Assembly (NCBI GenBank): GCA_040880365.1
Contig: JBBDIO010000059.1
Span: 1 to 43,826 of the forward strand
DNA length: 43,826 bases
Direction of reading: 5' to 3'
Source of the DNA: Litorilinea sp.
GTDB taxonomy: Bacteria; Chloroflexota; Anaerolineae; Caldilineales; Caldilineaceae
The position numbers and the translations under genes are program-made. The notes under the pieces are model-generated. The model had not been told where the DNA came from and made no database searches. It worked only from the letters and a program-made list of their open reading frames with translations. Below, one piece after another: positions 3,339 to 31,719 of the stretch (positions are counted from its first letter, which is position 1; each line of letters starts with the position of its first letter).

Positions 3339-5363
3339 CTACTTTTCCGCGATGGGAATGTGTAGACGCGTGGGGTCTGGGTCTGGGTCCGGATCTGGGT
3401 CCGGGTCTGGATCGGGATCCGGGTCCGGGTCTGGGTCTGGATCGGGATCCGGGTCCGGGTCCTCCGCCGGTTCAATTTCAATGGTCTCGGTCTCGGTGAT
3501 GCTACCCAGATCATTGCTCACGGTCACGGTCAGCGTCTTGGTGCCGGGCGTGGGCCAAGTGAGCGAGCCTGTCACCCGATAGCTATCCGTGTCGTTAACC
3601 GTAGCAGGGTTCTGGCCCGTGGCTTCGATGAGATAGTCCAGGGGCACGGTCGCGCCCTGAGGCCCGACGTTCACCGTCACCGAGACGGGAACGCCTGCCA
3701 GCGCAGTCATGGGCAGCGTCACCGAGATGATATCCAGCTCCATATACAGCTTGGAGTTGGGGCTGGTGGTGCTCGATCCCAGGTTGCCAATCACATTGGG
3801 ATTTTGCGCAGTGCTCATGGTGCGCAGGCCAAAGCCCGGCTCCAATGGCGCATCGAGTGTGAAGGTAAAATTGCCCGAACTATCGGCGGTGGTTTCGCCC
3901 AGATATTCAAACGCTTCATCGATATCGTCGCTATTATCGAGATAGAAATCGATTAGACAGTTGGGACATTCGCTCACGATAAGCTGACCGGCAAAGGTGC
4001 GCTCGCCATTGGTGCCGGTCACGGTCACGCCGTCGATGCCGGTGATCCGCCCCGGATCAAACAGGCGCAAAGCCTCGCCAGTCTGACCGATATAGTCATA
4101 AATCCGCCCCGGGCCGGTTTCCACCAGGTTGCGACGCACGGTAATGCCCGATGTCGTGCCGCTGAATCCCATCGCCGTGGGGTTGTCATCTTCGAAACTC
4201 ACACCGCTACCGTAGATCACATTGTCCAGCACATCGGTACCCGTGTTGCTAATCTTGATGGCAGAGCCACAGACACCCACTTTGTTATCGGCGTTGTCGA
4301 TGCCGATGATGTTGTCGCGGATCTCGTGATTGTTGCCAAAGCTCTCAATCGCGGTGGGACCTGAATCATTGGGTTGACGCACCAGATCCAGCCCGGCAAT
4401 GCGGTTGCCAATCGCCTGATTATTGCTGCCCGAAAGCGAAATGCCATCGCCGCCAAACCAGAAAGTCTCATCAAAGGTGCCGCCGCTGCACACGAACGGC
4501 GTGGGCACGGTGCCGTCGGCGCGCATCCCGATCAGATTGTTTTCGATGAGGTTGTTGCTGGCGCCGCCTGGCCCGCTATTGATGTTGATGGCGCGCGGTT
4601 GATTGGCGCCCACAATCACATTGTTGCGCACAATGTTGTTATCGCTGCCGAACACAATGATGCCGCCGCCCGCCATGCGGTTGGGTTGCGCCGGCGTGCG
4701 GAAGACCACGGCATCGCCGTCGGCGTTCAGGCCCATCCAGATATTTTCTACAATCGCATCGTGCCCGGCGATAATATCATTGGGATTGCCGTTGTCCTGA
4801 ATGGTCAGGTTGCCGCCACCAAAAAAGCCCAGATTGCGGACTTCCACATCGGGCACAGTAATCACAAAGCTCTCATCGTTGGTATCGATCATCACCTTGG
4901 GGCCGTCGGCAGAATCGCGGCCACCGGGCTGGGTGTCGCCATCCAGAATCACCGAGCCGCCGTCAATGCTGATATCCTTGCGGAAAAGCTCCAATGTTTC
5001 GCTTTGAATCTCGATGGTCCACACGCCATCCACGGCTTCGTCGGCGGGCAAGTTAAATTCGATGGTAATAGGGCGGTCGGCATCGGGCCGTGCCGAAGCC
5101 TCGCGCAATGCGCGCCGCAGCGTACAATCGCCATCGGGCGCGGGATTAAAGAATGCGCCTTCGGAAAAGGTACAGGTTTGGCTGGAGCTGGCAGGGTCGG
5201 GGTCCTGGGTGCTATCCACCACAATGGTGATTTGCGCCTGGGCAACGCTGTAGCCCGCCAGACTGACCGCCACCGCCAGCCCCAGGGCCAACAGCGGCAG
5301 ACAGATGGCCTTATACAGCCAATGTGGTCCAAAAACAGTTCCCGGATTGGGTGGGTGAAGCAT
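3339..5363 (-). CDS. secreted right-handed beta-helix repeat protein with Ig-like domain, (PD)15 linker and short C-terminal tail
   Basis: N-terminal signal/TM segment LPLLALGLAVAVSLAGYSVAQA. A CTLRRALREA motif resembles the CSLREA N-terminal domain. Repeated NNxVxNNxI and xNxIxG coils occur (NNIVRNNVIVG, NNLIENNLIG, NQAIGNRIAG, HEIRDNIIG). The C-terminus reads (DP)n-TRLHIPIAEK. Confidence 0.85.
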   Translation of the reverse strand: MLHPPNPGTVFGPHWLYKAICLPLLALGLAVAVSLAGYSVAQAQITIVVDSTQDPDPASSSQTCTFSEGAFFNPAPDGDCTLRRALREASARPDADRPITIEFNLPADEAVDGVWTIEIQSETLELFRKDISIDGGSVILDGDTQPGGRDSADGPKVMIDTNDESFVITVPDVEVRNLGFFGGGNLTIQDNGNPNDIIAGHDAIVENIWMGLNADGDAVVFRTPAQPNRMAGGGIIVFGSDNNIVRNNVIVGANQPRAININSGPGGASNNLIENNLIGMRADGTVPTPFVCSGGTFDETFWFGGDGISLSGSNNQAIGNRIAGLDLVRQPNDSGPTAIESFGNNHEIRDNIIGIDNADNKVGVCGSAIKISNTGTDVLDNVIYGSGVSFEDDNPTAMGFSGTTSGITVRRNLVETGPGRIYDYIGQTGEALRLFDPGRITGIDGVTVTGTNGERTFAGQLIVSECPNCLIDFYLDNSDDIDEAFEYLGETTADSSGNFTFTLDAPLEPGFGLRTMSTAQNPNVIGNLGSSTTSPNSKLYMELDIISVTLPMTALAGVPVSVTVNVGPQGATVPLDYLIEATGQNPATVNDTDSYRVTGSLTWPTPGTKTLTVTVSNDLGSITETETIEIEPAEDPDPDPDPDPDPDPDPDPDPDPDPDPDPDPTRLHIPIAEK
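3373..3462 (-). repeat. hexanucleotide coding microsatellite (GGKTCY)n encoding about 15 Pro-Asp dipeptides
   Basis: An uninterrupted run of 6-bp units is visible at about 3373-3462. It contains a nested ~30-bp higher-order repeat (gtctggatcgggatccgggtccgg occurs twice). Confidence 0.9.
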
Positions 5364-5385
5364 AAAATTCTCCTAAAATTCTCCT
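5364..5385 (-). promoter_or_regulatory. tandemly duplicated Shine-Dalgarno region (AGGAGAATTTT x2) directly upstream of the ATG at 5363
   Basis: On the plus strand, aaaattctcct occurs at 5364-5374 and again at 5375-5385. On the coding strand this reads AGGAGAATTTT-AGGAGAATTTT-ATG. Confidence 0.8.
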
Positions 5386-5480
5386 GATTGATCTGAATGT
5401 GAATCGAGCCGCGGGACAGTGTGCCCGGCAGTGGGTCAGACAATATACCATACAGTATGAATCTGCACCGTATGAAGCTG

Positions 5481-5506
5481 GGTTAACCTTGCTCGGTTAA
5501 CCTTGC
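5481..5506. promoter_or_regulatory. direct repeat of GGTTAACCTTGC (each copy holds the 8-bp palindrome GGTTAACC); candidate operator
   Basis: Copies lie at 5481-5492 and 5495-5506, about 120-140 nt upstream of the beta-helix gene start. Confidence 0.4.
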
Positions 5507-5557
5507 GGCCTGAATCCACTGTGTGCGCAGTAGCCGCGACACAGAATAAGCGCATAA

Positions 5558-5575
5558 CGTTTAGAAAACGCTCAC
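5558..5575. promoter_or_regulatory. 18-bp element CGTTTAGAAAACGCTCAC, copy 1 (contains palindrome CGTTT-AGA-AAACG)
   Basis: It is an exact 18/18 match to 8069-8086. It lies 195 nt upstream of the start at 5363 and 33 nt downstream of the stop of the 104-aa ORF. Confidence 0.5.
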
Positions 5576-5607
5576 AGCCCCGGAACAAAACCTGGTAAAC
5601 GCGCAGT

Positions 5608-5922
5608 TTATGGCCCACGGTCGAGCGTGGGCAGGAATATGGAGGGCGCGCCGGGATCCACTGCGGCACGCAACGGCGCAAAGAAGCCGCCATAGAGCCG
5701 ATAGCCGCCGCCCAGATGAAGCCCCGCATCGGGTTGACCTGTCACCCCGCGCAGGATATAGCTGCTGCTCTGCCCGCGGCCCCCACCCCCGTCGATGGTA
5801 TAGCTCACAACCCGATAGCCCTGGGCCAGTGCCGGAGTCGCGCCCCCGTGCGCAAGCGCCAGCAGGATTGCCACGCCCAGCGCCATCCAACCCCGTGTGC
5901 GCCTTTCAGATGTGTTTTGCAT
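5608..5922 (-). CDS. small secreted protein (104 aa) with duplicated S-Y-x-L-x-G ... GGFF module and IFLPTLDRGP tail
   Basis: Signal peptide WMALGVAILLALAHGGATPALAQG. GAGGAG Shine-Dalgarno site 3-5 nt upstream. It lies 47 nt downstream of the collagen-like gene on the same strand. Its C-terminal tail matches three other secreted proteins in the window. Competing overlapping ORFs have no such features. Confidence 0.7.
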   Translation of the reverse strand: MQNTSERRTRGWMALGVAILLALAHGGATPALAQGYRVVSYTIDGGGGRGQSSSYILRGVTGQPDAGLHLGGGYRLYGGFFAPLRAAVDPGAPSIFLPTLDRGP

Positions 5923-5969
5923 AAACTCCTCACTCTCTGCGGATTAGGTCGCCCAGAAGATCCTGCCCG

Positions 5970-7958
5970 CTACTGGCAATCGGCATCCAGATAGGCAAAA
6001 GCCGCGCTATAAACGTTCAGGCAGGTATAGCCAGCCGCCGTGCCCACGATGGGGCCATCGGCCAGGCTATGGGCAATGCGTATGGGCGAAGTATCCGCCG
6101 CCAGATAGAGACTGCCGGTACTGCCCGTGAAGGTTGAATTGTGGATATTCGAAGTGGATACCGACGCGTTGTAGAGACCATAGTTGAGCGCGCCATCCGC
6201 GCCGTCTGCGCGCACAGCATCGAGGTAGGCAGTGCTCGACTGATTGAAAATCGCATAATTGTCGCTATCGACACCCGAGGCCGACGCCCGTACATCGAGC
6301 AGAGTGGGCGTCGCGGTCACGTTGGATAGGCCGCGATTTGTGCTATCCGCGCCGGTGGCAGTCGCCACGACATGGCTCATCACCACCGAGCCGGGCTGGG
6401 TATGGATGCCATAATTGGTCGCATTGTCGCCCACGGCCGTGGCGGTCACGTCTACCATTTCGAATGAACTACTGCTATTGCTGACGCCACGATTGCTCCC
6501 CCCATCGCCAAACGCCAACGCGGTGACGCCATGCATTAGCGGGGCCGCGGATGTATTGTGCACAGCATAATGGGTGCCCGTCGCACCCGAAGCCGTGGCA
6601 GACACCTGGCGCATCTCTGGGGAACTCTCCTGGTTATAGACGGCATAGGCTACATTGGCAATGGCCGTCGCCGCCACATGGTGCATGACTGTGTGATTCG
6701 TGCCTACGGTATGCACCGCGTAGCTGGATTCAGAACCTTGGGCGCGGGCGGTGACGTGCAGCAACGTGGGCGACGCATTCAGGGTGTAGATGCCATAGGT
6801 GGTATTACTGGCCCCCTGGCCGCGGGCCGTCACATGCAAAAAACGCAAGGTGGCGGGCGGTGTATCCTGCACATGAATTGCGCCCACGTAGCCCACGTCT
6901 GTGCCCAGAGCTTCGACCGTCAGAAACCGCACTTCGGCAGTGATGGCGCCGGTGGCGCGCAGGGTGGCGCTGCTGTTGTCGATGGCAGGCTGCGTCGCGC
7001 TGCCGCTGACACTGCGCAAAGTGGTGACATCTGTGCCGCTGCCCTCGATATCTACATAGGCTTTGAGATCCACCGTTTCCGTATAGACACCTGGCCCGAT
7101 TCTGATGAGATAGCGATTTTCGGCGGTGGCATCAGTGATAGAACTCAGCGCGTCGGTCACACTGGTAAAATCTGCGCCGCTTTCCGATACCCAAATCACC
7201 CGTGCGGGTTGGGGTGCCGGTTCGCCCGGTTCCCCTTGTTCACCTTGCGTCCCCTGCTCCCCTTGTGGTCCCTGCGCACCCTGTAATCCCGGCGCGCCCT
7301 GGGGACCCTGTTCACCCTGTGGACCCTGTGGTCCTTGCGGGCCGGGAGGTCCGGTGCTGGCATCGACGCAGACCCACGCCGTGCCGTTCCACAGGAGCAT
7401 TTGATTTTCGGTGCACGTATCCGCCAGCATGACCAATCCGGCGGGCATGTTGGTGATCTGCGCCCAATCCACGCGCAAGGCCGTCGCCGCGGTGCCTGCA
7501 TAGAGCGCATAGGGCGTGGCAGTCAGCGGTTGGCGCGGCGCGAGCCGGCGATAACTCTCGGCATCCGTACCATCGTCGGCACAGCGCACCCCGATTTCCA
7601 GCCAGCGCGCCGCGCCATCAAAGGCACTCGCGCCAAAGTCCAGCGTGACCGTGAACAAGCCATCGCGCACGGTCACACCGGGGGTTTCGATGGGCGCACC
7701 CACCACGGCCCCGGCCCCCAGCGCGTCGTACAATTCAAAACGAAAGTCACAAATACCCGCCACCGGGCCGTCGGCATTGGTCAGCTGTCCCTGATAGGTG
7801 AAACGACTGCCCAGATTTTGGGCATGACCACTGGCAGCCTGCACATCGACGGTGCCCATGCTCACGAAAATGCCCCACACGAGCAAAATCAGCGCGCGTC
7901 TCCACACCAAGCCGTTGCCCGATAGTTTTCTCCATGTCCGGTCCCTTGCTTTCAACAT
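5970..7958 (-). CDS. secreted collagen-like triple-helix repeat protein with C-terminal beta-helix (pectin-lyase-fold-like) domain
   Basis: Signal/TM segment [20 protein letters not shown]. The N-domain (FTYQGQL...FRFELYDA...LFTVTLDFG...RWLEIGVR) resembles N-domains I recall from fibre-like proteins. Fifteen uninterrupted G-X-Y triplets follow. Then comes [11 protein letters not shown]...[14 protein letters not shown] and about 10 coils of a ~23-aa repeat (V-T-A-x-A-x-G-x-x-x-x-N-Y-G/A-I/V-x-N). Confidence 0.85.
7218..7352 (-). repeat. collagen-like (G-X-Y)15 coding repeat
   Basis: Residues 203-247 read [45 protein letters not shown]. Confidence 0.9.
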
Positions 7959-19179: not shown

Positions 19180-20082
19180 ATGACAATCCAGGTGTACAAT
19201 CCACATCGACATGTACAGGCCCGGTTTGGTATGGCGACCCTCCGGCGCACGCTGTTGGCTCTCATCGCCGGTGTGCTGCTGTGGGCGGGCTTCGCAGCCA
19301 CAGTACAGGCCGCCACCAGCCAGGCTGCCACAGTAGCTGGCAACCAGTGTGCCCAAACCCATGTGGTACAGCGGGGCGAAAATCTCTATCGCATTGGTCT
19401 GCGCTACAACGTACCCTTGCGCACGTTGCAAGGGTGGAACCAGATATCCAATGCCAATCGGATCTTTGTGGGGCAACGCTTGTGCGTGCAACTGCGCCCC
19501 GCCACGCCTCCCCAGCCCGATGCCCAGCCCACCGATGCAGAGCTGATCGAAGCGTTGCGCAACGTCAACATTCGGCGCGGTCCGGGTCTCGACCATGCTG
19601 TTATCGGATGGATGCGGACAGGCACGCAGGCACGGGTCACAGGCATCAGCCGCAATGGTCAATGGTGGCGCATCCTCTGCCCCGACGACAGCGAAAGCAG
19701 CTGTTGGGTCACTGCGTTGCCCTATCTGACCCAGGCCATACCCGAACCGGGACACGGACCGGGTGGCGACGGTTCCGACTGGGACAATAGTGCCGCGATT
19801 GTGGAAAGCATTGCCGTGCAGGTGCGCGAATCCTATCCGGTGCAGGTGGTGGCCGTGGTGCGCGGCTATCTGCCCAATAGTTGCACCTACATCGACCGTT
19901 TCCGCCAGCTGCGCGAAGGCAATACCATCCGCATCCAGATGACAACGGGCCAAAATCCTGGCGCGTGCGCCCAGGTGTTGATGCCTTTTACACAGACGAT
20001 TACGCTCGACGTGCACGACTGGCAGACGGGGCTGTATCGGGTAGCGCTGGATAATGTGGGCACCGATTTCTATCTGCCCTAG
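19180..20082 (+). CDS. secreted LysM and SH3b domain protein
   Basis: Signal peptide LLALIAGVLLWAGFAATVQA. LysM: HVVQRGENLYRIGLRYNVPLRTLQGWNQI. SH3b-like: NVNIRRGPGLDHAVIGWMRTGTQARVTGISRNGQWWRI. The C-terminal domain is Cys-containing and beta-rich. Confidence 0.8.
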   Translation: MTIQVYNPHRHVQARFGMATLRRTLLALIAGVLLWAGFAATVQAATSQAATVAGNQCAQTHVVQRGENLYRIGLRYNVPLRTLQGWNQISNANRIFVGQRLCVQLRPATPPQPDAQPTDAELIEALRNVNIRRGPGLDHAVIGWMRTGTQARVTGISRNGQWWRILCPDDSESSCWVTALPYLTQAIPEPGHGPGGDGSDWDNSAAIVESIAVQVRESYPVQVVAVVRGYLPNSCTYIDRFRQLREGNTIRIQMTTGQNPGACAQVLMPFTQTITLDVHDWQTGLYRVALDNVGTDFYLP

Positions 20083-20103
20083 GTAAAGCCAGGTATAGCA
20101 CTG

Positions 20104-20153
20104 AAAATAAAAAGACACCGGATTGTTTGTCGCAATCCGGTGTCTTTTTATTT
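20104..20153. terminator. bidirectional intrinsic terminator between convergent genes
   Basis: A perfect 13-bp stem pairs agacaccggattg (20113-20125) with caatccggtgtct (20133-20145). It has an A-run upstream and tttttattt downstream. Confidence 0.85.
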
Positions 20154-20179: not shown

Positions 20180-20911
20180 CTAATCTTCTTCTTCTGTTGC
20201 TTCTTCTTCTGTTGCTTCTTCTTCTGTCGCTTCAGACTCTGTCGCTTCAGACTCTGCGGCTTCGCGCACGACATCTTCATCAATGGCATACCAGATATCG
20301 GCCAAAAAGCCCTGGGCATCCACCGCGCTGATGGTCTCGCCCACCTGGGGTTCGCCATCGGCACACGACCACTGATAGACTGTGGCCCGGCCTGTCACCA
20401 CCATCGGGATGAAATCGCTAGTGGGGTTTTCCTCACAATAGGTCACAATCGCGTCGGAAGGTTCCGTGCTGAGGTCGGCCTTTTCGCTACAGGGCAAATT
20501 GGCGCCCACACTACAGGCATAGACCAACCCGTCCATACAGCGCCACACCGTAGAATCCTGGAAGAAACTCAGGGGTGTTTCGGGCGTATCAAATTCGACG
20601 CGCAACCCCACGGCAATCGATTCGGGCACATCTGGCCCGGTATAGTCGGCATCGGGCGCGTCGATGGTTTGCACCGCCGCGCAATAGGCAAAGGGATCGG
20701 CATAGCCTGCGGCGGGTTGCGCCAAAGGGCTATCCACCGCCAGCGGCGATTCCGGCTGCGCAACGGGGGTTGGTTCCGAAGTCGGTTCAGCCGTGGGCGT
20801 GGGGGGTGCGGTCGGTTCGGGTGTGGCCGTCGGTTCCGGAGCGCCCCCACCACAGGCTGCAATCAGCAACAAGGCAAATACCAGACTTTGTAATTTGAAT
20901 ACTGTCTTCAT
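20180..20911 (-). CDS. lipoprotein, Pro/Thr/Glu-rich linker, Cys-rich core, acidic (EATEE)n tail
   Basis: I chose the start at the ATG at 20911 with an AGGAG Shine-Dalgarno site. Lipobox: MKTVFKLQSLVFALLLIAAC. The core contains 8 Cys. The C-terminus reads ESEATESEATEEEATEEEATEEED. Confidence 0.75.
   Translation of the reverse strand: MKTVFKLQSLVFALLLIAACGGGAPEPTATPEPTAPPTPTAEPTSEPTPVAQPESPLAVDSPLAQPAAGYADPFAYCAAVQTIDAPDADYTGPDVPESIAVGLRVEFDTPETPLSFFQDSTVWRCMDGLVYACSVGANLPCSEKADLSTEPSDAIVTYCEENPTSDFIPMVVTGRATVYQWSCADGEPQVGETISAVDAQGFLADIWYAIDEDVVREAAESEATESEATEEEATEEEATEEED
20186..20260 (-). repeat. 15-bp x5 tandem coding repeat (EATEE/EATES units)
   Basis: ttcttcttctgttgc at 20186-20200 and 20201-20215 are identical. 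20216-20230 has one mismatch. 20231-20245 and 20246-20260 are a diverged variant (ttcagactctgtcgc). Confidence 0.9.
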
Positions 20912-21072
20912 AAAACAACTCCTGCGGATGGATGATTCCTGTACGGACGCATTGATGCGGCTCTGTGTGACTGGATGCAATGCTGTGCGACGTAGGCAAG
21001 AATCGGATTGTGGATTGGTTTTTAGATTAGCGGATGATTTCAATGCTGGGCACAACTTCACTTCTATATAAA

Positions 21073-21286: not shown

Positions 21287-22942
21287 ATGCAACATTTTGT
21301 CACCTATTTACTTGCGTTCTGGTTGGCGGTGGGCGTCGCGCTGAGTCCGCTCACAGATCCCATTCCCGCGGCACAGGCGCAACCCCCGGATGATCAGTTG
21401 GGCGAATCGCTGGGCTTTGTCATCCTGTTTCCCCAACTGCGCACATTGCCGCCGCCCGCCTGGTTTCAACCCGGTGTGCGCGTTTCATATGATGTGATTA
21501 GCGCCAACTTTCAGGGCGGGGGCGCCGGGGGTGGCGTGGCCCAATACGACGTGCTGGGCCTGAATGCAGGTTGGGCCGTGGTTTCGGCACAAAGTTTCAT
21601 CGACAACGGCGCGGGCGCGTTGATTCCCACAGGGCCTGCACCCAAAGTAGGTCTGCCCGCGGTGGGTGAAATCTGGATTAACCCCCAGGTGCTGACGAAT
21701 GCCGAAGCCGTCGCCAACCAGAATCTGAGCGTTACTCGCATCAACAAGACGTATCTGGGGCAAGTCCGTCAGGTTGTCCGCTTTGAATCGATCACACAAG
21801 GCCAATCTGGCATCGCGCGCACCGTCTGGGAATTTAACAGCGCCAGCGGTCTGCTCCTCTTCTATAGCCAGTCGCTGGATGGCGTAACGGCCAGCCAGTT
21901 GCTAGTCCGCAACTTCCGCACGCTGAACATGGTGCACATGGGCACGCGTGCGCCCAACTGGGTACGCCCTGGCGCACAGCTGGATTTTACCGGCACCCAG
22001 AGCCAGCAGATTGCCAACGCCGGCAATTTCGTAATGCCCTTTGCCATCAGCAACCAGATCGCCGGCGCGACACCCACCTGGAGCATCCAGGGGCAGAATC
22101 TTTTCCTCAATAACAGCTTCAGCGGCAGCGCATCGACCGCCACCGGCATTGGGCAGGTATTTGGCGGGCTGTGGCTGCCCAGCGATGCCCTGGCGCGGAT
22201 TCCGGGCAACACCACCATCATCGACAACGACCCGGACACCGGCGCACAACTCCGCATTGGTCGCGCCGACAATGGCGAGATTTTTCTGCGCGAGATCAAT
22301 CAGGCCTATAATACAATTCTCTTCTATGATCCCAATCTGGGAGCATTGAATGGAATTTTGCAATCTATCACCATGCTCACCAGCATCACAAACATAGATG
22401 TGCGGCGCACGGGCGGCAGCAATCTGCCCCAGCTCAACACCTTGCCGCCCCTGGCAAGCGATCCCGACCCCACTGGCCCCGAAGACAATCTGCAACCCGA
22501 TCTCAGCCAGTCCCAGACCTTCACCATCGACCTGCCCACCACCACATTGCGTCTGGAAACGCCCGCCAACTTTGTGGCACAGCCGGCGGATCTCACGGTC
22601 AACATCGTCTTGGGACCGCCGCCCCCACCCCCAGACCAGACGCCGGTGGGCGATGCGTTTATTCTGAATGTCAGCACGCGCGCCGATGGCGACCCGCTGC
22701 TGGCATTCGACAAGCCGGTCACGCTGCGGATCACGCTGCCCACCCTGGCTTCTGCGTCGGCCCATACACCCGCGCTGTATCACCGCACGGCAGAAGGGTG
22801 GCAGCCGCTGACCAGCACCTACGATCCGGACGACGGCACGGTGACGGCAAGCCACGACCGGGCGGGACTATATGGCGTCTTCCAGGCGGATCGCGACAAC
22901 GACATACCAGGGCGCATCTTTCTGCCCACCTTACGCCGCTAA
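21287..22942 (+). CDS. secreted hypothetical protein (551 aa) ending in RIFLPTLRR
   Basis: AGGAG Shine-Dalgarno site 6 nt upstream. Signal peptide MQHFVTYLLAFWLAVGVALSPLTDPIPAAQAQ. The Pro-rich linker includes GPPPPPPDQ, and the C-terminal part looks beta-sandwich-like. I recognise no family. Confidence 0.75.
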   Translation: MQHFVTYLLAFWLAVGVALSPLTDPIPAAQAQPPDDQLGESLGFVILFPQLRTLPPPAWFQPGVRVSYDVISANFQGGGAGGGVAQYDVLGLNAGWAVVSAQSFIDNGAGALIPTGPAPKVGLPAVGEIWINPQVLTNAEAVANQNLSVTRINKTYLGQVRQVVRFESITQGQSGIARTVWEFNSASGLLLFYSQSLDGVTASQLLVRNFRTLNMVHMGTRAPNWVRPGAQLDFTGTQSQQIANAGNFVMPFAISNQIAGATPTWSIQGQNLFLNNSFSGSASTATGIGQVFGGLWLPSDALARIPGNTTIIDNDPDTGAQLRIGRADNGEIFLREINQAYNTILFYDPNLGALNGILQSITMLTSITNIDVRRTGGSNLPQLNTLPPLASDPDPTGPEDNLQPDLSQSQTFTIDLPTTTLRLETPANFVAQPADLTVNIVLGPPPPPPDQTPVGDAFILNVSTRADGDPLLAFDKPVTLRITLPTLASASAHTPALYHRTAEGWQPLTSTYDPDDGTVTASHDRAGLYGVFQADRDNDIPGRIFLPTLRR

Positions 22943-26988: not shown

Positions 26989-27258
26989 CGCGCCCAGGAC
27001 ACAGTTAACCTGTGTATCCGCGCATACCGCCCACAGCGCCAGACCCGATCCGGCTGGTCAAACGAACTGATCGCTTACCAACCGGCAACGCAGCACAGGT
27101 TGCCGTCTATCTTTGCGTCCATCAATTCCATTCTGCAGACAGGGATTCAGTTGACACGGTGCCTACGCAGCCCGATGGACATAATTCCTTTGACGATTTC
27201 TTTAACGATTCCGGCAATTTTATAACGCTCAGGTTCGATCCTCTGGGGGAGGCAAGTG

Positions 27259-30200
27259 ATGGCAAGACGGGTGATTCACACACTATTACTTCTGCTCATG
27301 TTGTGGATTGGCGCAGTCTCTACCGCGCAAACGGCGCGCGCAGAGACCGACGCTACCTATCAAACACCGCAAACCGTAGTCAACGAACAGCTTAACGAGT
27401 GGACACTCTCTTCGGGGATGCTCTATTGGGCCTACCGCTGCTACGGCGGCGTGGAGTTTTCGTGGCCGGGCTTTCTCCGGCGCAAGCCCGTCAATGGCAC
27501 CACCATCCGCACCCTGTCGACCACCACAGCGGCGGATTGTGTCACATTTCTGAACATGAACGCCGATGCCGAGGGTCTTTATTACTATAATGCGGCTGCC
27601 GTGGGCGATGTCGTGCGGGGGATTTATTTCCGACCTTCGGGCGATCCCTACGATCCGCCCATCCTGCTCTATGCCACAGGCTCCGATTTTCCGAGTTCGG
27701 GGTCGCGCCTCTTCCCCGCGGGCGAGTGGGTCTATTGGATCACCGGCACCGAGATTCGGCGAGTGAACAAAGACGGCGGCGGCGGCATTCAAATCGCGGC
27801 CAACACCGCAGCCAATCCCACGGATATTCTGGTGCTGGGATCGACGCTCTACTGGCTGGATGACGCGGGACTGCGCAGCGCATCTGTTACGTGCGACGTC
27901 CTGCCCTGTCCTGTCACGCTCCTGGTGAATGACACGCGCGGCAACTATCTGCGCCTGGTGCCCGTTACCACCGGACTGATTATAAACCGGGGCACGCGCA
28001 TTATGTGGGTCGAGACTAATAGCGGCGACCAGAAAATTCGCAGCCTCGTCTGCTCATTTATCACGCCGGGCTGTTCTACCCGCACCATATACACCGTGCC
28101 CGAAGGCTCGCCCTGGGAAATCGGGCGATTCAGCAGCCACGGCGACCTCTTGTTCTTTGTAGAAGGCTTTGAAAATCAGAATCATCGTGTGCGCCGGGCA
28201 ACCATTTCCATAGATACAGATGAGGATGCCACCATCCAGGAATTGGGCGCCGGCGGCGCGGGGGCTGCCTTCACCGACAACGCCTGGGTCTATTACTATG
28301 ACGGCGACGCCCTAAATTCCTTCGCCAGCCCCGGGCTGAAACGCCTGCCCTTTGATACTGCTGCCATCACCCGCGATCTGGCGGCGGCGCAGATCGAAGT
28401 GACACAGGGGATCCAGAATCTGAACAACGCCGCGCCGCTGGCAGGTGATAAACCGACCTTTGTGCGGGCCTATGCCAATCACAATATGGGGCCATCGGCC
28501 AATGGCGTGGAAGCGCGTCTACATGCCACCCGCGGCGGTTCGCCCCTGCCCGGCTCGCCGTTGACGCCCCTCAACGGCACGCGCCCCCTGCAAACCGGCG
28601 CGCCCATCGACCGCACGCAAACCACCAACAACTGGCTATTCCAGCTCCCCGGCAGCTGGGACAATCCCGGCACCGTAGAGTTCCGGCTGGAGATCGACCC
28701 GCGCCAGCTCTATGACGACCCCAATCGCGACAACAACTCGCTGACACGCGCAGTCAGCTTTGCCAACAAAGCGCCGATCTGTCAGGTCTTTGTGCCGGTA
28801 CGCACCCATGCGCCCACGGCATCCACCGATCTTTCCATCTTCTGGCCTATGGTCGACATGACCAAACGCCTGTTGCCCACCTCGGATATCTGGGCCTATA
28901 AACAAAACAGCGACGTGGCCGAATTGCAGGTCTGCTGGAAAGGCCCCTTCCCCTATCCCTGCTTTGGGCCTTATGAAATCCCCGATGACGACTGGAAGAT
29001 CATGGCGAGCCTGTGGATTCGCGACCAGTTTTCAGACGATCCCGACGCGTGCGACGACGTCAACGCGCGCACCCACTACACGGGCCTCATGCACCCCAGC
29101 ACCAGCACAGGGGGGCTGAACGGCATGGCCGGCTTGGGGTTCGACCAGCTCTTTGTGCATATGCCGCCGCTCAGCGCCGCGCCTCTCGACTGGCGCAGCT
29201 CATCCCGCGTGGCGACGCTGGCCCATGAACTGGGCCACAACTATGACCGCAACCACATCAACTGCGGAGGACCGGCAGACCCGGATCTGGGCTATCCCTA
29301 CACCAATCCCAATTCCTGCCGCATCGACGACCGCCCACTGGACAATGTGGCGACCTATTTCGGCTTCGATCTGCAAGCCCGCCAGCCGATTCCACCCGCG
29401 TCGGGCGGAATCCGCGACCTCATGGCCTATGGCACGGTGCGCTGGCCCAGCGACTATACCTGGCGCGCCATCTTCAACGGCATCGATAACCGCACAGGCA
29501 TTGCCGGCGAAATCCTCAGCGAAGAGGTAGACACCAGCCCGACTGCGGCCCAGATTGCCGCCATCGACCTGGTTTCCAGCCACGGCACAGTGTTGATTAC
29601 CGGCGGCATTACCCCCACCCTGGAACAAGGCGAACTGGACTACGCCTGGGTGATCCCGCCCGGCGCGGCCAGCACGGGGATGCTGCGCAAGTGGCAACGC
29701 TTCGCAGCGGGCGGGATCTATGGGCAGGATGATAATACAGCCCTGGCCGCCGGTCTCCAGGCCGACGCCTACTTTGTGCGGCTCATCGGTGAAGGCGATG
29801 CAGTGCTGGGCGAACCGCACGAAGTGACGCTCTTCATTCTGGAGGATGCGGACAATGAGCGGGTCGCCTTTGGCGCGACTTTCCCCGCGCCCGAAGCAAC
29901 GGTGATCCGCGTGGAACTGCTGGCCGATGATACGGTGATTGCCACGCTGGCCCCCGGACCGGCGCAACCGCAGGTAGAAGTAAATCTGCCCGCGGGCGGC
30001 GAAATCATCGACGCCGGGCTGACCGTCTCCTGGACGGCAACCGATGCCAATGCCGAAGATGTGCTGAAATTCATGGTGCAATATAGCCACGACAGCGGCA
30101 CAAGCTGGCGCACGCTGGTTTCCAACTATGCCGCGCCCGCAGGCGACGAGACCGTGACCATCAGCCTCACCAATGTGCTGGACATTCCTGCCAGCAATGG

Positions 30201-31719
30201 CCCCAATGCCCTGATTCGGGTGCTCGCCAGCGATGGCTATAACACCGGGCTGGATGTATCGGCCCCGTTCACAGTGGTCAACCGCAAGCCCGAACCCTAC
30301 ATTATTGCCCCCACCGATGGCGCAGTCTACCCGGTGGATGAGGCGATTTTGTTGAACGGCGGCGGCTTCGATGTGGAAGACGGCGGGCTGCCCGATGCCG
30401 CGCTGGACTGGACGCTCACCGGGCCACAGGGCAACAGCGCACTGGGCACGGGCGCTAATCTCAACGTCTATGGCCTGACAACCGGCTTCTATACCGCCAC
30501 GCTGACCGCCGAAGACAGTGAAGGCGCGACGGACGCGACCGCGGCAGGCTTCCAGGTCGCGCCCATGCTGATCCCCAGCGGCGGCGCGCCCACCATCGAC
30601 GGGCTGTGTGAAGACAGCGTCTATGCCAACGCAGTACAGGTGCAGCTGGCGCCCTATGATGCAGAAAGCCAGGGAACTGTTCTGCTCACCCAGACCGGCA
30701 GCAGCCTCTACGCCTGTTTCGTGGGGCTGAAACAAGGCACATTCCAACTGCCGGATGACAATCCCAGCGCCATCAAGAGTTCGTTCGCCGGCGTGCGCAT
30801 CGACCCCAACCTGAGCCGCGAGGCCAGCGCCCAGAGCGATGACTATGGCTTCTTCATCGACTATGACGGCGGCATCTTCACCTATGCCGGTGATGGCGCC
30901 GGCGGCTTCGACCAGGCCGGTCCTGGGGGTCTGGTGGGGCAGCTCTTCGTGGGCGCGCAGACCTGGTCGGCAGAGCTGCAAATCAGTCTCGCCACGATTG
31001 GCGGGGCAGATCACCCGCTGGGCATCAAAGTCGGTCACTATTGGGTAGACGCACAGGGCAATGACTATGGCTGGCCCTATGCAGCAGGCTGGAATGCGCC
31101 CAACACATGGGCCGAAACCGCCGTGGGTGTGAAGCCTGTCATCACGGCCCATACGCCTATGTCTGCCACCATCCCCAGCGGGGATATTACGCTGGTTGTG
31201 CAAGGCACCGGCTTTGTAGATGGCGCGACAGTGCGCTGGGGCAACGTGGATCTCACCACTGCATTCAGCGCCACCACGTCGCTCACCGCCACCGTGCCCA
31301 ATGGGCTGCTGGCAACACCCGGCACGACCGCCATCACCGTACGCAATCCTGCCGGTGCGGGGCTGGTCTCCAATGCCGTCAGCTTCGTGCTCCTGGGGCC
31401 GGCGCCGGTCATCACCTCGCTCACCCCGCCCAATACCGGGGCCGAGGGAGAGACTCTCACGCTCCAGGTGAGTGGCGAGAACTTCATCCCCAACGCAACG
31501 GTCTACTGGAACGGCGAAGCGCGGCCGACACTCTTTATGAACAACAATCGGCTGGATGTGCAGGTGCCCGCGGCCGATCTGGAAATTGCTCAACTGGTAG
31601 GGGTAACGGTACTCAACCCCGAACCCGACGGCCAGGCGTCGAATACGCTGATCTTCACCATCGACCCGACCAATCCATCTAACCCGTTCATCTTCATTCC
31701 CAACGTGCAGCGCGACTAG
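27259..31719 (+). CDS. giant secreted protein: beta-propeller-like N-region, metzincin-like zinc motif, Ig-like/IPT-TIG repeats, FIFIPNVQRD tail
   Basis: GGAGG Shine-Dalgarno site at 27248-27252. The ATG at 27259 is preferred; a GTG at 27256 is also possible. Signal peptide LLLLLMLWIGAVSTAQTARA. Recurrent LYW/VYW/IMW blade-like motifs occur in residues ~50-350. HELGHNYDRNH lies at 29224-29256. Two IPT/TIG-like domains lie near the C-terminus (ITLVVQGTGF..., LTLQVSGENF...). Confidence 0.85.
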   Translation: MARRVIHTLLLLLMLWIGAVSTAQTARAETDATYQTPQTVVNEQLNEWTLSSGMLYWAYRCYGGVEFSWPGFLRRKPVNGTTIRTLSTTTAADCVTFLNMNADAEGLYYYNAAAVGDVVRGIYFRPSGDPYDPPILLYATGSDFPSSGSRLFPAGEWVYWITGTEIRRVNKDGGGGIQIAANTAANPTDILVLGSTLYWLDDAGLRSASVTCDVLPCPVTLLVNDTRGNYLRLVPVTTGLIINRGTRIMWVETNSGDQKIRSLVCSFITPGCSTRTIYTVPEGSPWEIGRFSSHGDLLFFVEGFENQNHRVRRATISIDTDEDATIQELGAGGAGAAFTDNAWVYYYDGDALNSFASPGLKRLPFDTAAITRDLAAAQIEVTQGIQNLNNAAPLAGDKPTFVRAYANHNMGPSANGVEARLHATRGGSPLPGSPLTPLNGTRPLQTGAPIDRTQTTNNWLFQLPGSWDNPGTVEFRLEIDPRQLYDDPNRDNNSLTRAVSFANKAPICQVFVPVRTHAPTASTDLSIFWPMVDMTKRLLPTSDIWAYKQNSDVAELQVCWKGPFPYPCFGPYEIPDDDWKIMASLWIRDQFSDDPDACDDVNARTHYTGLMHPSTSTGGLNGMAGLGFDQLFVHMPPLSAAPLDWRSSSRVATLAHELGHNYDRNHINCGGPADPDLGYPYTNPNSCRIDDRPLDNVATYFGFDLQARQPIPPASGGIRDLMAYGTVRWPSDYTWRAIFNGIDNRTGIAGEILSEEVDTSPTAAQIAAIDLVSSHGTVLITGGITPTLEQGELDYAWVIPPGAASTGMLRKWQRFAAGGIYGQDDNTALAAGLQADAYFVRLIGEGDAVLGEPHEVTLFILEDADNERVAFGATFPAPEATVIRVELLADDTVIATLAPGPAQPQVEVNLPAGGEIIDAGLTVSWTATDANAEDVLKFMVQYSHDSGTSWRTLVSNYAAPAGDETVTISLTNVLDIPASNGPNALIRVLASDGYNTGLDVSAPFTVVNRKPEPYIIAPTDGAVYPVDEAILLNGGGFDVEDGGLPDAALDWTLTGPQGNSALGTGANLNVYGLTTGFYTATLTAEDSEGATDATAAGFQVAPMLIPSGGAPTIDGLCEDSVYANAVQVQLAPYDAESQGTVLLTQTGSSLYACFVGLKQGTFQLPDDNPSAIKSSFAGVRIDPNLSREASAQSDDYGFFIDYDGGIFTYAGDGAGGFDQAGPGGLVGQLFVGAQTWSAELQISLATIGGADHPLGIKVGHYWVDAQGNDYGWPYAAGWNAPNTWAETAVGVKPVITAHTPMSATIPSGDITLVVQGTGFVDGATVRWGNVDLTTAFSATTSLTATVPNGLLATPGTTAITVRNPAGAGLVSNAVSFVLLGPAPVITSLTPPNTGAEGETLTLQVSGENFIPNATVYWNGEARPTLFMNNNRLDVQVPAADLEIAQLVGVTVLNPEPDGQASNTLIFTIDPTNPSNPFIFIPNVQRD

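Follow-up and report, generated by a model that had tools for sequence, protein, structure and literature searches.

The 43,826-nucleotide contig of Litorilinea sp. analyzed here (GenBank JBBDIO010000059.1, assembly GCA_040880365.1; this whole stretch is hereafter called the window) encodes four secreted proteins that have unrelated bodies and yet end in the same short sequence. What is this tail, and what does it do for the proteins that carry it? A first-pass annotation of the DNA had taken it for a candidate undescribed sorting or anchoring tag. We find that the tails are best read as YLP-boxes, a motif class that has already been noticed and curated, with the form h-[Y/F/H]-[L/I]-P-x-[I/V/L]-x-[R/K] (where h is hydrophobic) plus 0-3 residues, and that this class occurs on many unrelated surface-type proteins that bacteria of the Chloroflexota type (Anaerolineae and relatives) export by Sec. 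The four proteins and their tails are located as follows; matrix scores refer to the position-specific matrix described below.

Window 3339-5363, minus strand: tagged secreted protein of 674 amino acids, from its translation, resembling beta-helix and PKD domains only weakly and below threshold, and with a long (PD)n linker ahead of its C-terminal tag.
Window 3342-3368, minus strand: its tail RLHIPIAEK, the most divergent variant of the tag, with H at the aromatic position and an I-P core.
Window 5608-5922, minus strand: tagged secreted protein of 104 amino acids, from a large family of small proteins (GQPDAG...YxLxGGFW) whose members end in the YLP-box.
Window 5611-5640, minus strand: its tail IFLPTLDRGP, the tag plus two extra residues; matrix score 7.6 bits.
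Window 21287-22942, plus strand: tagged secreted protein of 551 amino acids, of an uncharacterised family, with the C-terminus GRIFLPTLRR.
Window 22916-22939, plus strand: its tail IFLPTLRR; matrix score 14.2 bits.
Window 27256-31719, plus strand: tagged secreted protein of 1487 amino acids, with a zinc-protease motif, HELGH, and, immediately before the tag, two choice-of-anchor Z / IPT repeats.
Window 31690-31716, plus strand: its tail IFIPNVQRD; matrix score 6.8 bits.

All four open reading frames (ORFs) translate as the first-pass annotation claimed, and its assignment of clear N-terminal signal peptides holds: each N-terminus has a positively charged n-region, an h-region and an AxA-type site, as judged by inspection and by a crude test for hydrophobic runs. 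Immediately before the stop codon the 674-residue protein reads DPDPTRLHIPIAEK, that is (PD)n-TRLHIPIAEK, the 104-residue protein reads PSIFLPTLDRGP and the 1487-residue giant reads NPFIFIPNVQRD. The bodies are unrelated, as had been stated, with no pair better than E=0.012 in an all-against-all blastp comparison (four-sequence database). The Pfam Beta_helix and PKD matches of the 674-residue protein are weak and both fall under their curated cut-offs, the giant matches the NCBIfam model NF058597 CoaZ_rpt_PGGG at 159.9 bits as well as Pfam TIG, and the 551- and 104-residue proteins match no Pfam or NCBIfam family; profiles of the 551-residue family and of the small family found no matches among PDB sequences.

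In each of the four tails the stop codon follows 0-2 residues past the basic residue, leaving no room for a transmembrane helix downstream. The codons of the tails differ synonymously (ATA TTC CTG CCC ACG CTC against ATC TTT CTG CCC ACC TTA) and the DNA downstream of the four tails has nothing in common, so that conservation acts on the peptide and not on a DNA repeat. IFLPTLRR and IFLPTLDR satisfy the pattern h-[YF]-L-P-x-[IVL]-x-[KR]; IFIPNVQR and LHIPIAEK satisfy only the skeleton h-x-[LI]-P-x-h-x-basic, with matrix scores of 6.8 bits and <4 bits, respectively.

The tail is retained among homologs of the window proteins. In the 551-residue family 13 of 13 closer homologs (P0006-P0018, 42-65% identical) end in [FYHN]-[LI]-P-[TALM]-[LV]-x-[RKQ..], behind linkers that vary wholly in length and composition, from acidic repeats or PT-rich stretches to almost none. 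Y-type tails occur in this family in P0016 (IYLPTLRQ), P0007 (NYLPALQR) and P0018 (VYLPAVRN). A profile search with the 104-residue family returned 1398 proteins at E<=0.01, and about 105 of the best 116 new matches end in [VIL]-[YF]-L-P-[LMVT]-[IVL]-x-[RK] plus 0-3 residues; F occupies the aromatic position in 17 of the 65 unique tails of the family, and family-wide 0-3 residues lie past the basic position. Relatives of the giant with choice-of-anchor Z repeats end in RVMLPLITR (P0084) and QLFLPLILK (P0102), and the LHIP/LHLP variant of the 674-residue protein recurs C-terminally in P0011 (RLHIPLVAS) and in a beta-helix protein of locus L134 (WLHLPLIAR). A genome scan with a 12-sequence alignment of the 551-residue family gave 7 loci; the nearest genome-resolved relative of the window protein comes from a metagenome-assembled genome (MAG) labelled 'uncultured Chloroflexia bacterium' (L001, 53% identity), and the named members of the small family come from 'Anaerolineae bacterium' MAGs. 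More distant relatives of the small family (P0261, P0276, P0277, P0278 and P0283; 147-158 residues) are without the YLP-box; these same five have an extra domain of ~60 residues with the recurring end [FY]YRL-x-x-P.

The tail is also enriched at the ends of proteins outside these families. Within the window, a loose test for h-h-h-P in the last 14 residues selects 7 of the 356 stop-to-stop ORFs of >=60 residues in six frames, these being the four claimed genes, a LysM secreted gene that ends in FYLP and two short ORFs. A 9-position matrix trained solely on homologs of the 104-residue protein was then used to score ~233 kb in 12 loci (the window, L001, L002, L008, L009, L134, L140, L146, L153, L154, L157 and L160), from which the seed genes and all small-family members were removed to leave 168 independent ORFs of >=100 residues. 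At >=8 bits there are 7 C-terminal matches against 0.054 expected from the internal rate of 4 matches in 61,950 internal positions (Poisson p=3e-13), and at >=4 bits 10 against 0.22. A signal-peptide-like N-terminus is present in all 7 of the independent matches at >=8 bits. Across 177 ORFs of >=100 residues the tag goes with such an N-terminus in 14 cases to 0 at the same threshold (Fisher p=2e-6). The enrichment over internal occurrences and the correlation with signal peptides, both of which the first-pass annotation had proposed as checks, are thus borne out in these related loci.

The independent carriers are diverse. They include a CSLREA-domain, rhombotarget-A-like protein (tail SVLLPLVIR), NosD/beta-helix proteins (WLHLPLIAR and QAYLPVILREVP), an FG-GAP protein (YVYLPLVLR), a TIG-repeat protein (RVMLPLITR), proteins of 773 and 783 residues, and a 528-residue protein in L163 (YYFLPLVRR), and all of the independent tagged proteins of other loci have signal-peptide-like N-termini. 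The tag is modular and preceded by low-complexity linkers that vary, it is restricted to the very end of the chain, and selection conserves it at the protein level; in the sampled loci it occurs only on proteins with signal-peptide-like N-termini.

These results bear on the simplest alternative, in which the tails would be alike by chance or through biased composition, or would stem from a repeat carried in the DNA at the ends of genes. The motif is indeed short and degenerate, and a stop-independent DNA pattern for IFLPT[L/F]RR applied metagenome-wide yields at least 120 loci, almost all of them chance matches in non-coding frames; this pattern used YTN, which also admits Phe, and is unusable for enrichment, the other loci serving as a rough negative control. 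Among the metagenome matches listed the sole true tagged gene is in L029, where there is a second tagged neighbour (KVFLPFALK), and the same pattern gives one chance match in viral contigs. Chance is nevertheless hard to reconcile with a C-terminal enrichment at p about 1e-13, with the restriction of the tag to proteins with signal-peptide-like N-termini and with its conservation in >100 homologs behind variable linkers, while the synonymous codon differences and the lack of common flanking DNA speak against a repeat. The tests that were run refute this explanation, and we give it practically no weight. A separate observation from the metagenome search is that seven unrelated contigs (L018, L024, L037, L046, L074, L098 and L128) have a common conserved stretch with a short-ORF translation ending in PLPGPLSGRWIFLPTFRR before the stop codon; the stretch is probably conserved as a non-coding element or in another frame and matches the DNA pattern by accident.

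To what class does the tail belong? NCBIfam release 20.0 contains two curated ultrashort models, both named 'YLP-box putative sorting motif-containing protein', which surfaced when isolated tails were compared with its models under a lenient E-value. The first, NF050076.1 (sort_motif_YLP), spans 11 positions with a curated cut-off of 15 bits; the second, NF053834.1 (ultrashort_CTERM), spans 10 positions with one of 10 bits. The two models match the canonical tails of homologs, VYLPLITR for example. On NF050076 and NF053834, respectively, the tail TVYLPLITR of a homolog of the 104-residue protein scores 19.6 and 18.9 bits, the tail EIYLPLIQK of another 14.9 and 17.1 bits, and the whole of protein P0002 15.8 and 15.2 bits, at or above both cut-offs; the F variant LFLPLITR of P0224 reaches 12.9 bits, where the cut-off is 10. 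Two unrelated large proteins of L146 likewise align to the models over their final ten residues, with scores under the cut-off. No match from either model was obtained for RIYLPTLRQ, SVLLPLVIR, RVMLPLITR, QLFLPLILK or LVYLPAVRN.

The canonical YLP-box is h-Y-L-P-L-[IV]-x-[RK]. The window tails resemble it in their position within the last 8-11 residues, in the core of hydrophobic residue, aromatic residue, L, P, x, I/V/L, x and K/R, in the type of protein that carries them, and in the Y-type tails carried by homologs of the 104- and the 551-residue protein; those from the 104-residue family pass the curated cut-offs, and IYLPTLRQ and VYLPAVRN from the 551-residue family gave no match. The window tails differ in having F or H in place of Y, T, N or I in place of the L that follows P, and L or A in place of I/V. 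Since the curated models match the homolog tails, the tag belongs to a known motif class and the description of it as undescribed does not stand, two curated models already covering the class. On the strength of these sequence relationships we assign the window tails to the YLP-box as divergent members. The function given in the NCBIfam entries is 'putative', with mechanism and enzyme unnamed, and in the literature library searched there was nothing on this tag, only frog temporins and papers on an unrelated 'YLP motif'.

The YLP-box is distinct from the sorting signals to which it might be compared. Like the tripartite signals (LPXTG/sortase, PEP-CTERM/exosortase, GlyGly-CTERM/rhombosortase, MYXO-CTERM and IPTL-CTERM) it stands at the C-terminus of surface proteins exported by Sec, frequently after low-complexity linkers and choice-of-anchor domains, has a terminal basic residue, and swaps with such signals on homologous passengers. 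Those signals, however, have a transmembrane helix of ~20 residues between signature and basic cluster, whereas the YLP-box chain stops 0-3 residues past a single basic residue. The window proteins match no LPXTG, PEP-CTERM, GlyGly-CTERM, MYXO-CTERM or IPTL-CTERM model of NCBIfam at E<=1, and with no helix past the motif this agrees with the earlier observation that the tails do not fit the LPXTG, PEP-CTERM, GlyGly-CTERM or IPTL-CTERM designs. A sortase-like reading of 'LPTL' was rejected, the general consensus being LPL[IV], without conserved Thr or Gly. The C-terminal domain of the type IX secretion system (~80-100 residues) gave no hidden Markov model match in the window proteins, whose tails come after either a disordered linker or an IPT repeat. 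The C-terminal Lys of Braun lipoprotein is attached by L,D-transpeptidases in a reaction that needs the epsilon-amine of the terminal lysine. The YLP-box is similar in that a C-terminus with a basic end and no transmembrane segment would be used for envelope attachment; in the YLP-box, however, R predominates and residues may trail behind it, so that its chemistry cannot equal that of Braun lipoprotein.

An indication of function comes from what stands in place of the tag in homologous proteins. Distant homologs of the 551-residue family from Myxococcota MAGs end in Cys, a transmembrane segment and a basic tail, and the Myxococcota family member P0019 passes both MYXO-CTERM cut-offs (20.4 and 17.3 bits). 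The small-family homolog P0267 has a GC-type dockerin in the tag's place (27.2 bits, just under the cut-off of 29), which occupies the same C-terminal slot, although as a folded domain of ~60 residues rather than an eight-residue peptide. The tagged rhombotarget-A-like protein, which is in L008, resembles the rhombosortase target RbtA. By NCBI label use, 'choice-of-anchor' domains precede alternative anchors; choice-of-anchor Z repeats are present in the window giant and in P0084, and a beta-helix protein of L140 has a weak match to choice-of-anchor Q (21 bits against a cut-off of 25). Because homologs swap the tag for MYXO-CTERM or a dockerin, and because choice-of-anchor domains occur on its carriers, we consider it reasonably probable that the tag is a surface-retention signal recognised by a lineage-specific factor after Sec export. 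The sorting or anchoring role originally proposed is to this extent upheld, the tag being modular, C-terminal, confined to exported-type proteins and consistent with the anchor swaps, while the mechanism is something that we only infer.

Such a mechanism might proceed as follows. The protein would be exported by Sec and its signal peptide removed; a lineage-specific factor, encoded outside the window, would then bind the short hydrophobic-Pro-hydrophobic-basic tail; and the tagged protein would as a result be kept at the cell surface. The tag would in this way play a role parallel to that of the MYXO-CTERM, GlyGly-CTERM, LPXTG or dockerin modules on homologous passenger domains in other phyla. 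As there is no membrane-spanning segment, recognition would have to act on a soluble or transiently membrane-associated C-terminus. The interchange of K and R and the tolerance of up to three trailing residues suggest recognition of charge and of nearness to the chain end, and not of one particular terminal carboxylate or of a nucleophilic lysine, which argues against both a PDZ-type reading with a fixed carboxylate and Braun-type lysine cross-linking.

Several observations weigh against reading the window tails as YLP-boxes with a retention function. Neither the four window proteins nor their isolated tails match NF050076 or NF053834 at E<=10, a result in which the speed filters of HMMER may hide weak matches; sub-threshold alignments could be lost in the same way, so that the missing match means that the curated models do not themselves recover these tails and is not proof of a different motif. 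YLP-box membership of the window tails is accordingly based on orthology and on our own matrix, and RLHIPIAEK, the weakest of the four, falls under the small-family matrix threshold. The gene calls and the signal-peptide test behind the association statistics are crude heuristics, and the loci, having been reached via tagged genes, over-represent the surroundings of surface-protein genes. Even the curated name is qualified as 'putative', and neither experiments nor publications back any function. An eight-residue tail lacking a membrane anchor would be an unusual substrate for a membrane-bound sorting enzyme, and no recurrent candidate for such an enzyme was found in 15 loci. When the ORFs of 14 loci were clustered, the recurrent families were the tagged families, the fibre-like partner of the small protein, and generic ATP-binding cassette (ABC) and two-component genes. 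The window itself has no visible partner enzyme, as the first-pass annotation had noted.

The recurrence of a fibre-like partner brings in another explanation of the tail. In the window and elsewhere the small tagged gene is the second member of a cassette (window 5608-7958, minus strand), in which a large secreted fibre-like protein is followed directly by the small YLP-box protein, often with overlapping start and stop codons. The partner gene of the window is the following.

Window 5970-7958, minus strand: untagged secreted collagen-repeat protein of 662 amino acids, with a Pfam Collagen match and a sub-threshold Pectinesterase match; the conserved upstream partner of the small tagged protein.

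The N-terminal ~150 residues of this protein are homologous to the gene directly upstream of the small-family genes in L134, L140, L146, L154, L157 and L160. L163 has the same gene order, with an upstream partner known only by a C-terminal tail resembling that of L146. The large partners, which lack the YLP-box, carry collagen repeats, beta-helix, LVIVD or Peptidase_S74 modules and terminate either in a transmembrane segment with an RR tail or in a different short hydrophobic tail (GxGLIQMLVMAQ, GTGTITLLVMMR). An AlphaFold model of the 104-residue protein (87 homologs) has a mean predicted local distance difference test (pLDDT) score of 61, with ~50 in the mature part; the protein is disordered alone in this model, which is uninformative on the conformation of the tail. 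As a speculation, the small protein could be an adaptor that lends an untagged fibre a YLP-box. A similarity of the small family to the pilus tip protein PamT of the Candidate Phyla Radiation (10.64898/2026.03.03.709456) was considered and rejected, the scores of 17-21 bits against a cut-off of 240 being too weak and perhaps due in part to the signal peptide.

This arrangement would suit a tail that acts as a non-covalent docking or assembly peptide, a hydrophobic strand that binds a shared envelope receptor or scaffold, such as an S-layer, a sheath or a receptor of its own, perhaps through beta-strand addition, and that remains uncleaved, giving anchoring without a sorting enzyme. The small tagged protein (~65 residues when mature) invariably has a large fibre-like partner, as might be expected of an adaptor, and its disorder alone would fit folding on a partner; there is likewise no transmembrane segment that would hold a substrate at a membrane enzyme, and the dockerin that replaces the tag in one homolog is itself a non-covalent module. 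The central invariant proline is nevertheless unfavourable for a regular donor strand, eight residues can provide little binding energy, no candidate receptor has been identified, and a docking peptide has no obvious need to lie within three residues of the chain end. We therefore regard docking as unlikely, if worth keeping in view.

The neighbourhoods of the tagged genes contain a few further genes of interest. A Tricorn_C1-PDZ-Peptidase_S41 gene, of the C-terminal processing protease type, lies directly downstream of the gene for the tagged TIG protein P0084 (L153, 12712-14163), in one occurrence. Two unrelated loci have, no more than 10 kb from tagged genes, homologous membrane methyltransferases of the ICMT/PEMT family (L008, 18589-19266, and L157, 96-806), and radical SAM/SPASM genes adjoin the small tagged gene in L157 and lie near the 551-family gene in L009. 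We treat the PDZ-S41, methyltransferase and radical SAM/SPASM genes as leads only, and not as evidence for a partner. The first of them recalls the idea that the tail would mark proteins for maturation or turnover by an extracytoplasmic protease that processes C-termini (of the PDZ-S41 Ctp/Tsp type or similar), leading to trimming, activation or degradation rather than to anchoring. PDZ proteases do read short hydrophobic C-termini, and the position of the gene next to P0084 would be in keeping with this. It is, however, a single neighbourhood case; the tagged chains end in K/R or in 1-3 variable residues, when PDZ domains prefer a hydrophobic terminal residue and a fixed carboxylate register; and a protease signal would leave the replacement of the tag by bona fide anchors (MYXO-CTERM, dockerin) unexplained. 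A role of this kind seems to us distinctly improbable.

A stronger form of the retention reading is that the YLP-box is the signal of a mechanistically new sorting system, in which a transpeptidase or ligase, or a receptor, would act on the eight-residue tail, lacking a transmembrane segment, of already exported proteins in the single-membrane Chloroflexota, the tail serving as a leaving group or as a docking strand. We hold this possibility to be doubtful. Were it true, the FLPTL and HIP variants of the window would belong to a lineage in which the recognition factor has diverged along with them, out of reach of the curated models.

Two other genes of the window deserve mention for the composition of their ends. 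The LysM gene picked out by the loose test is a LysM/SH3 secreted protein (window 19180-20082), and its end is as follows.

Window 20068-20082, plus strand: end of the LysM/SH3 secreted protein, FYLP followed by TAG, with TD just before it.

Translated past this TAG, the plus-strand DNA at window 20068-20130 reads FYLP, stop, VKPGIALKIKRHR. The end of the LysM protein may be a YLP-box interrupted by a stop at the variable position of the motif, and the TAG could represent a decayed tag, a sequencing error or read-through. A 293-residue ORF (window 20180-21061, minus strand) has no family match and an acidic-repeat end, (ATEEE)n followed by EATEEEATEEED and the stop codon.

The contribution of the window is thus to provide divergent members that lie beyond the curated models of a class already noticed and curated. 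As these models miss natural variants (FLPTL, FIPNV, HIPI/HLPL, LLPLV and MLPLI), the set of cargo proteins is currently underestimated. The presence of a common tag on large adhesin-like, beta-helix, FG-GAP and protease proteins defines this cargo set and would enable a search for the partner by phylogenetic profiling. Next to nothing is known of the way in which Chloroflexota present proteins on their unusual envelope, and a short tag without a transmembrane segment offers a direct handle on this process and could also serve as a compact surface-display tag.

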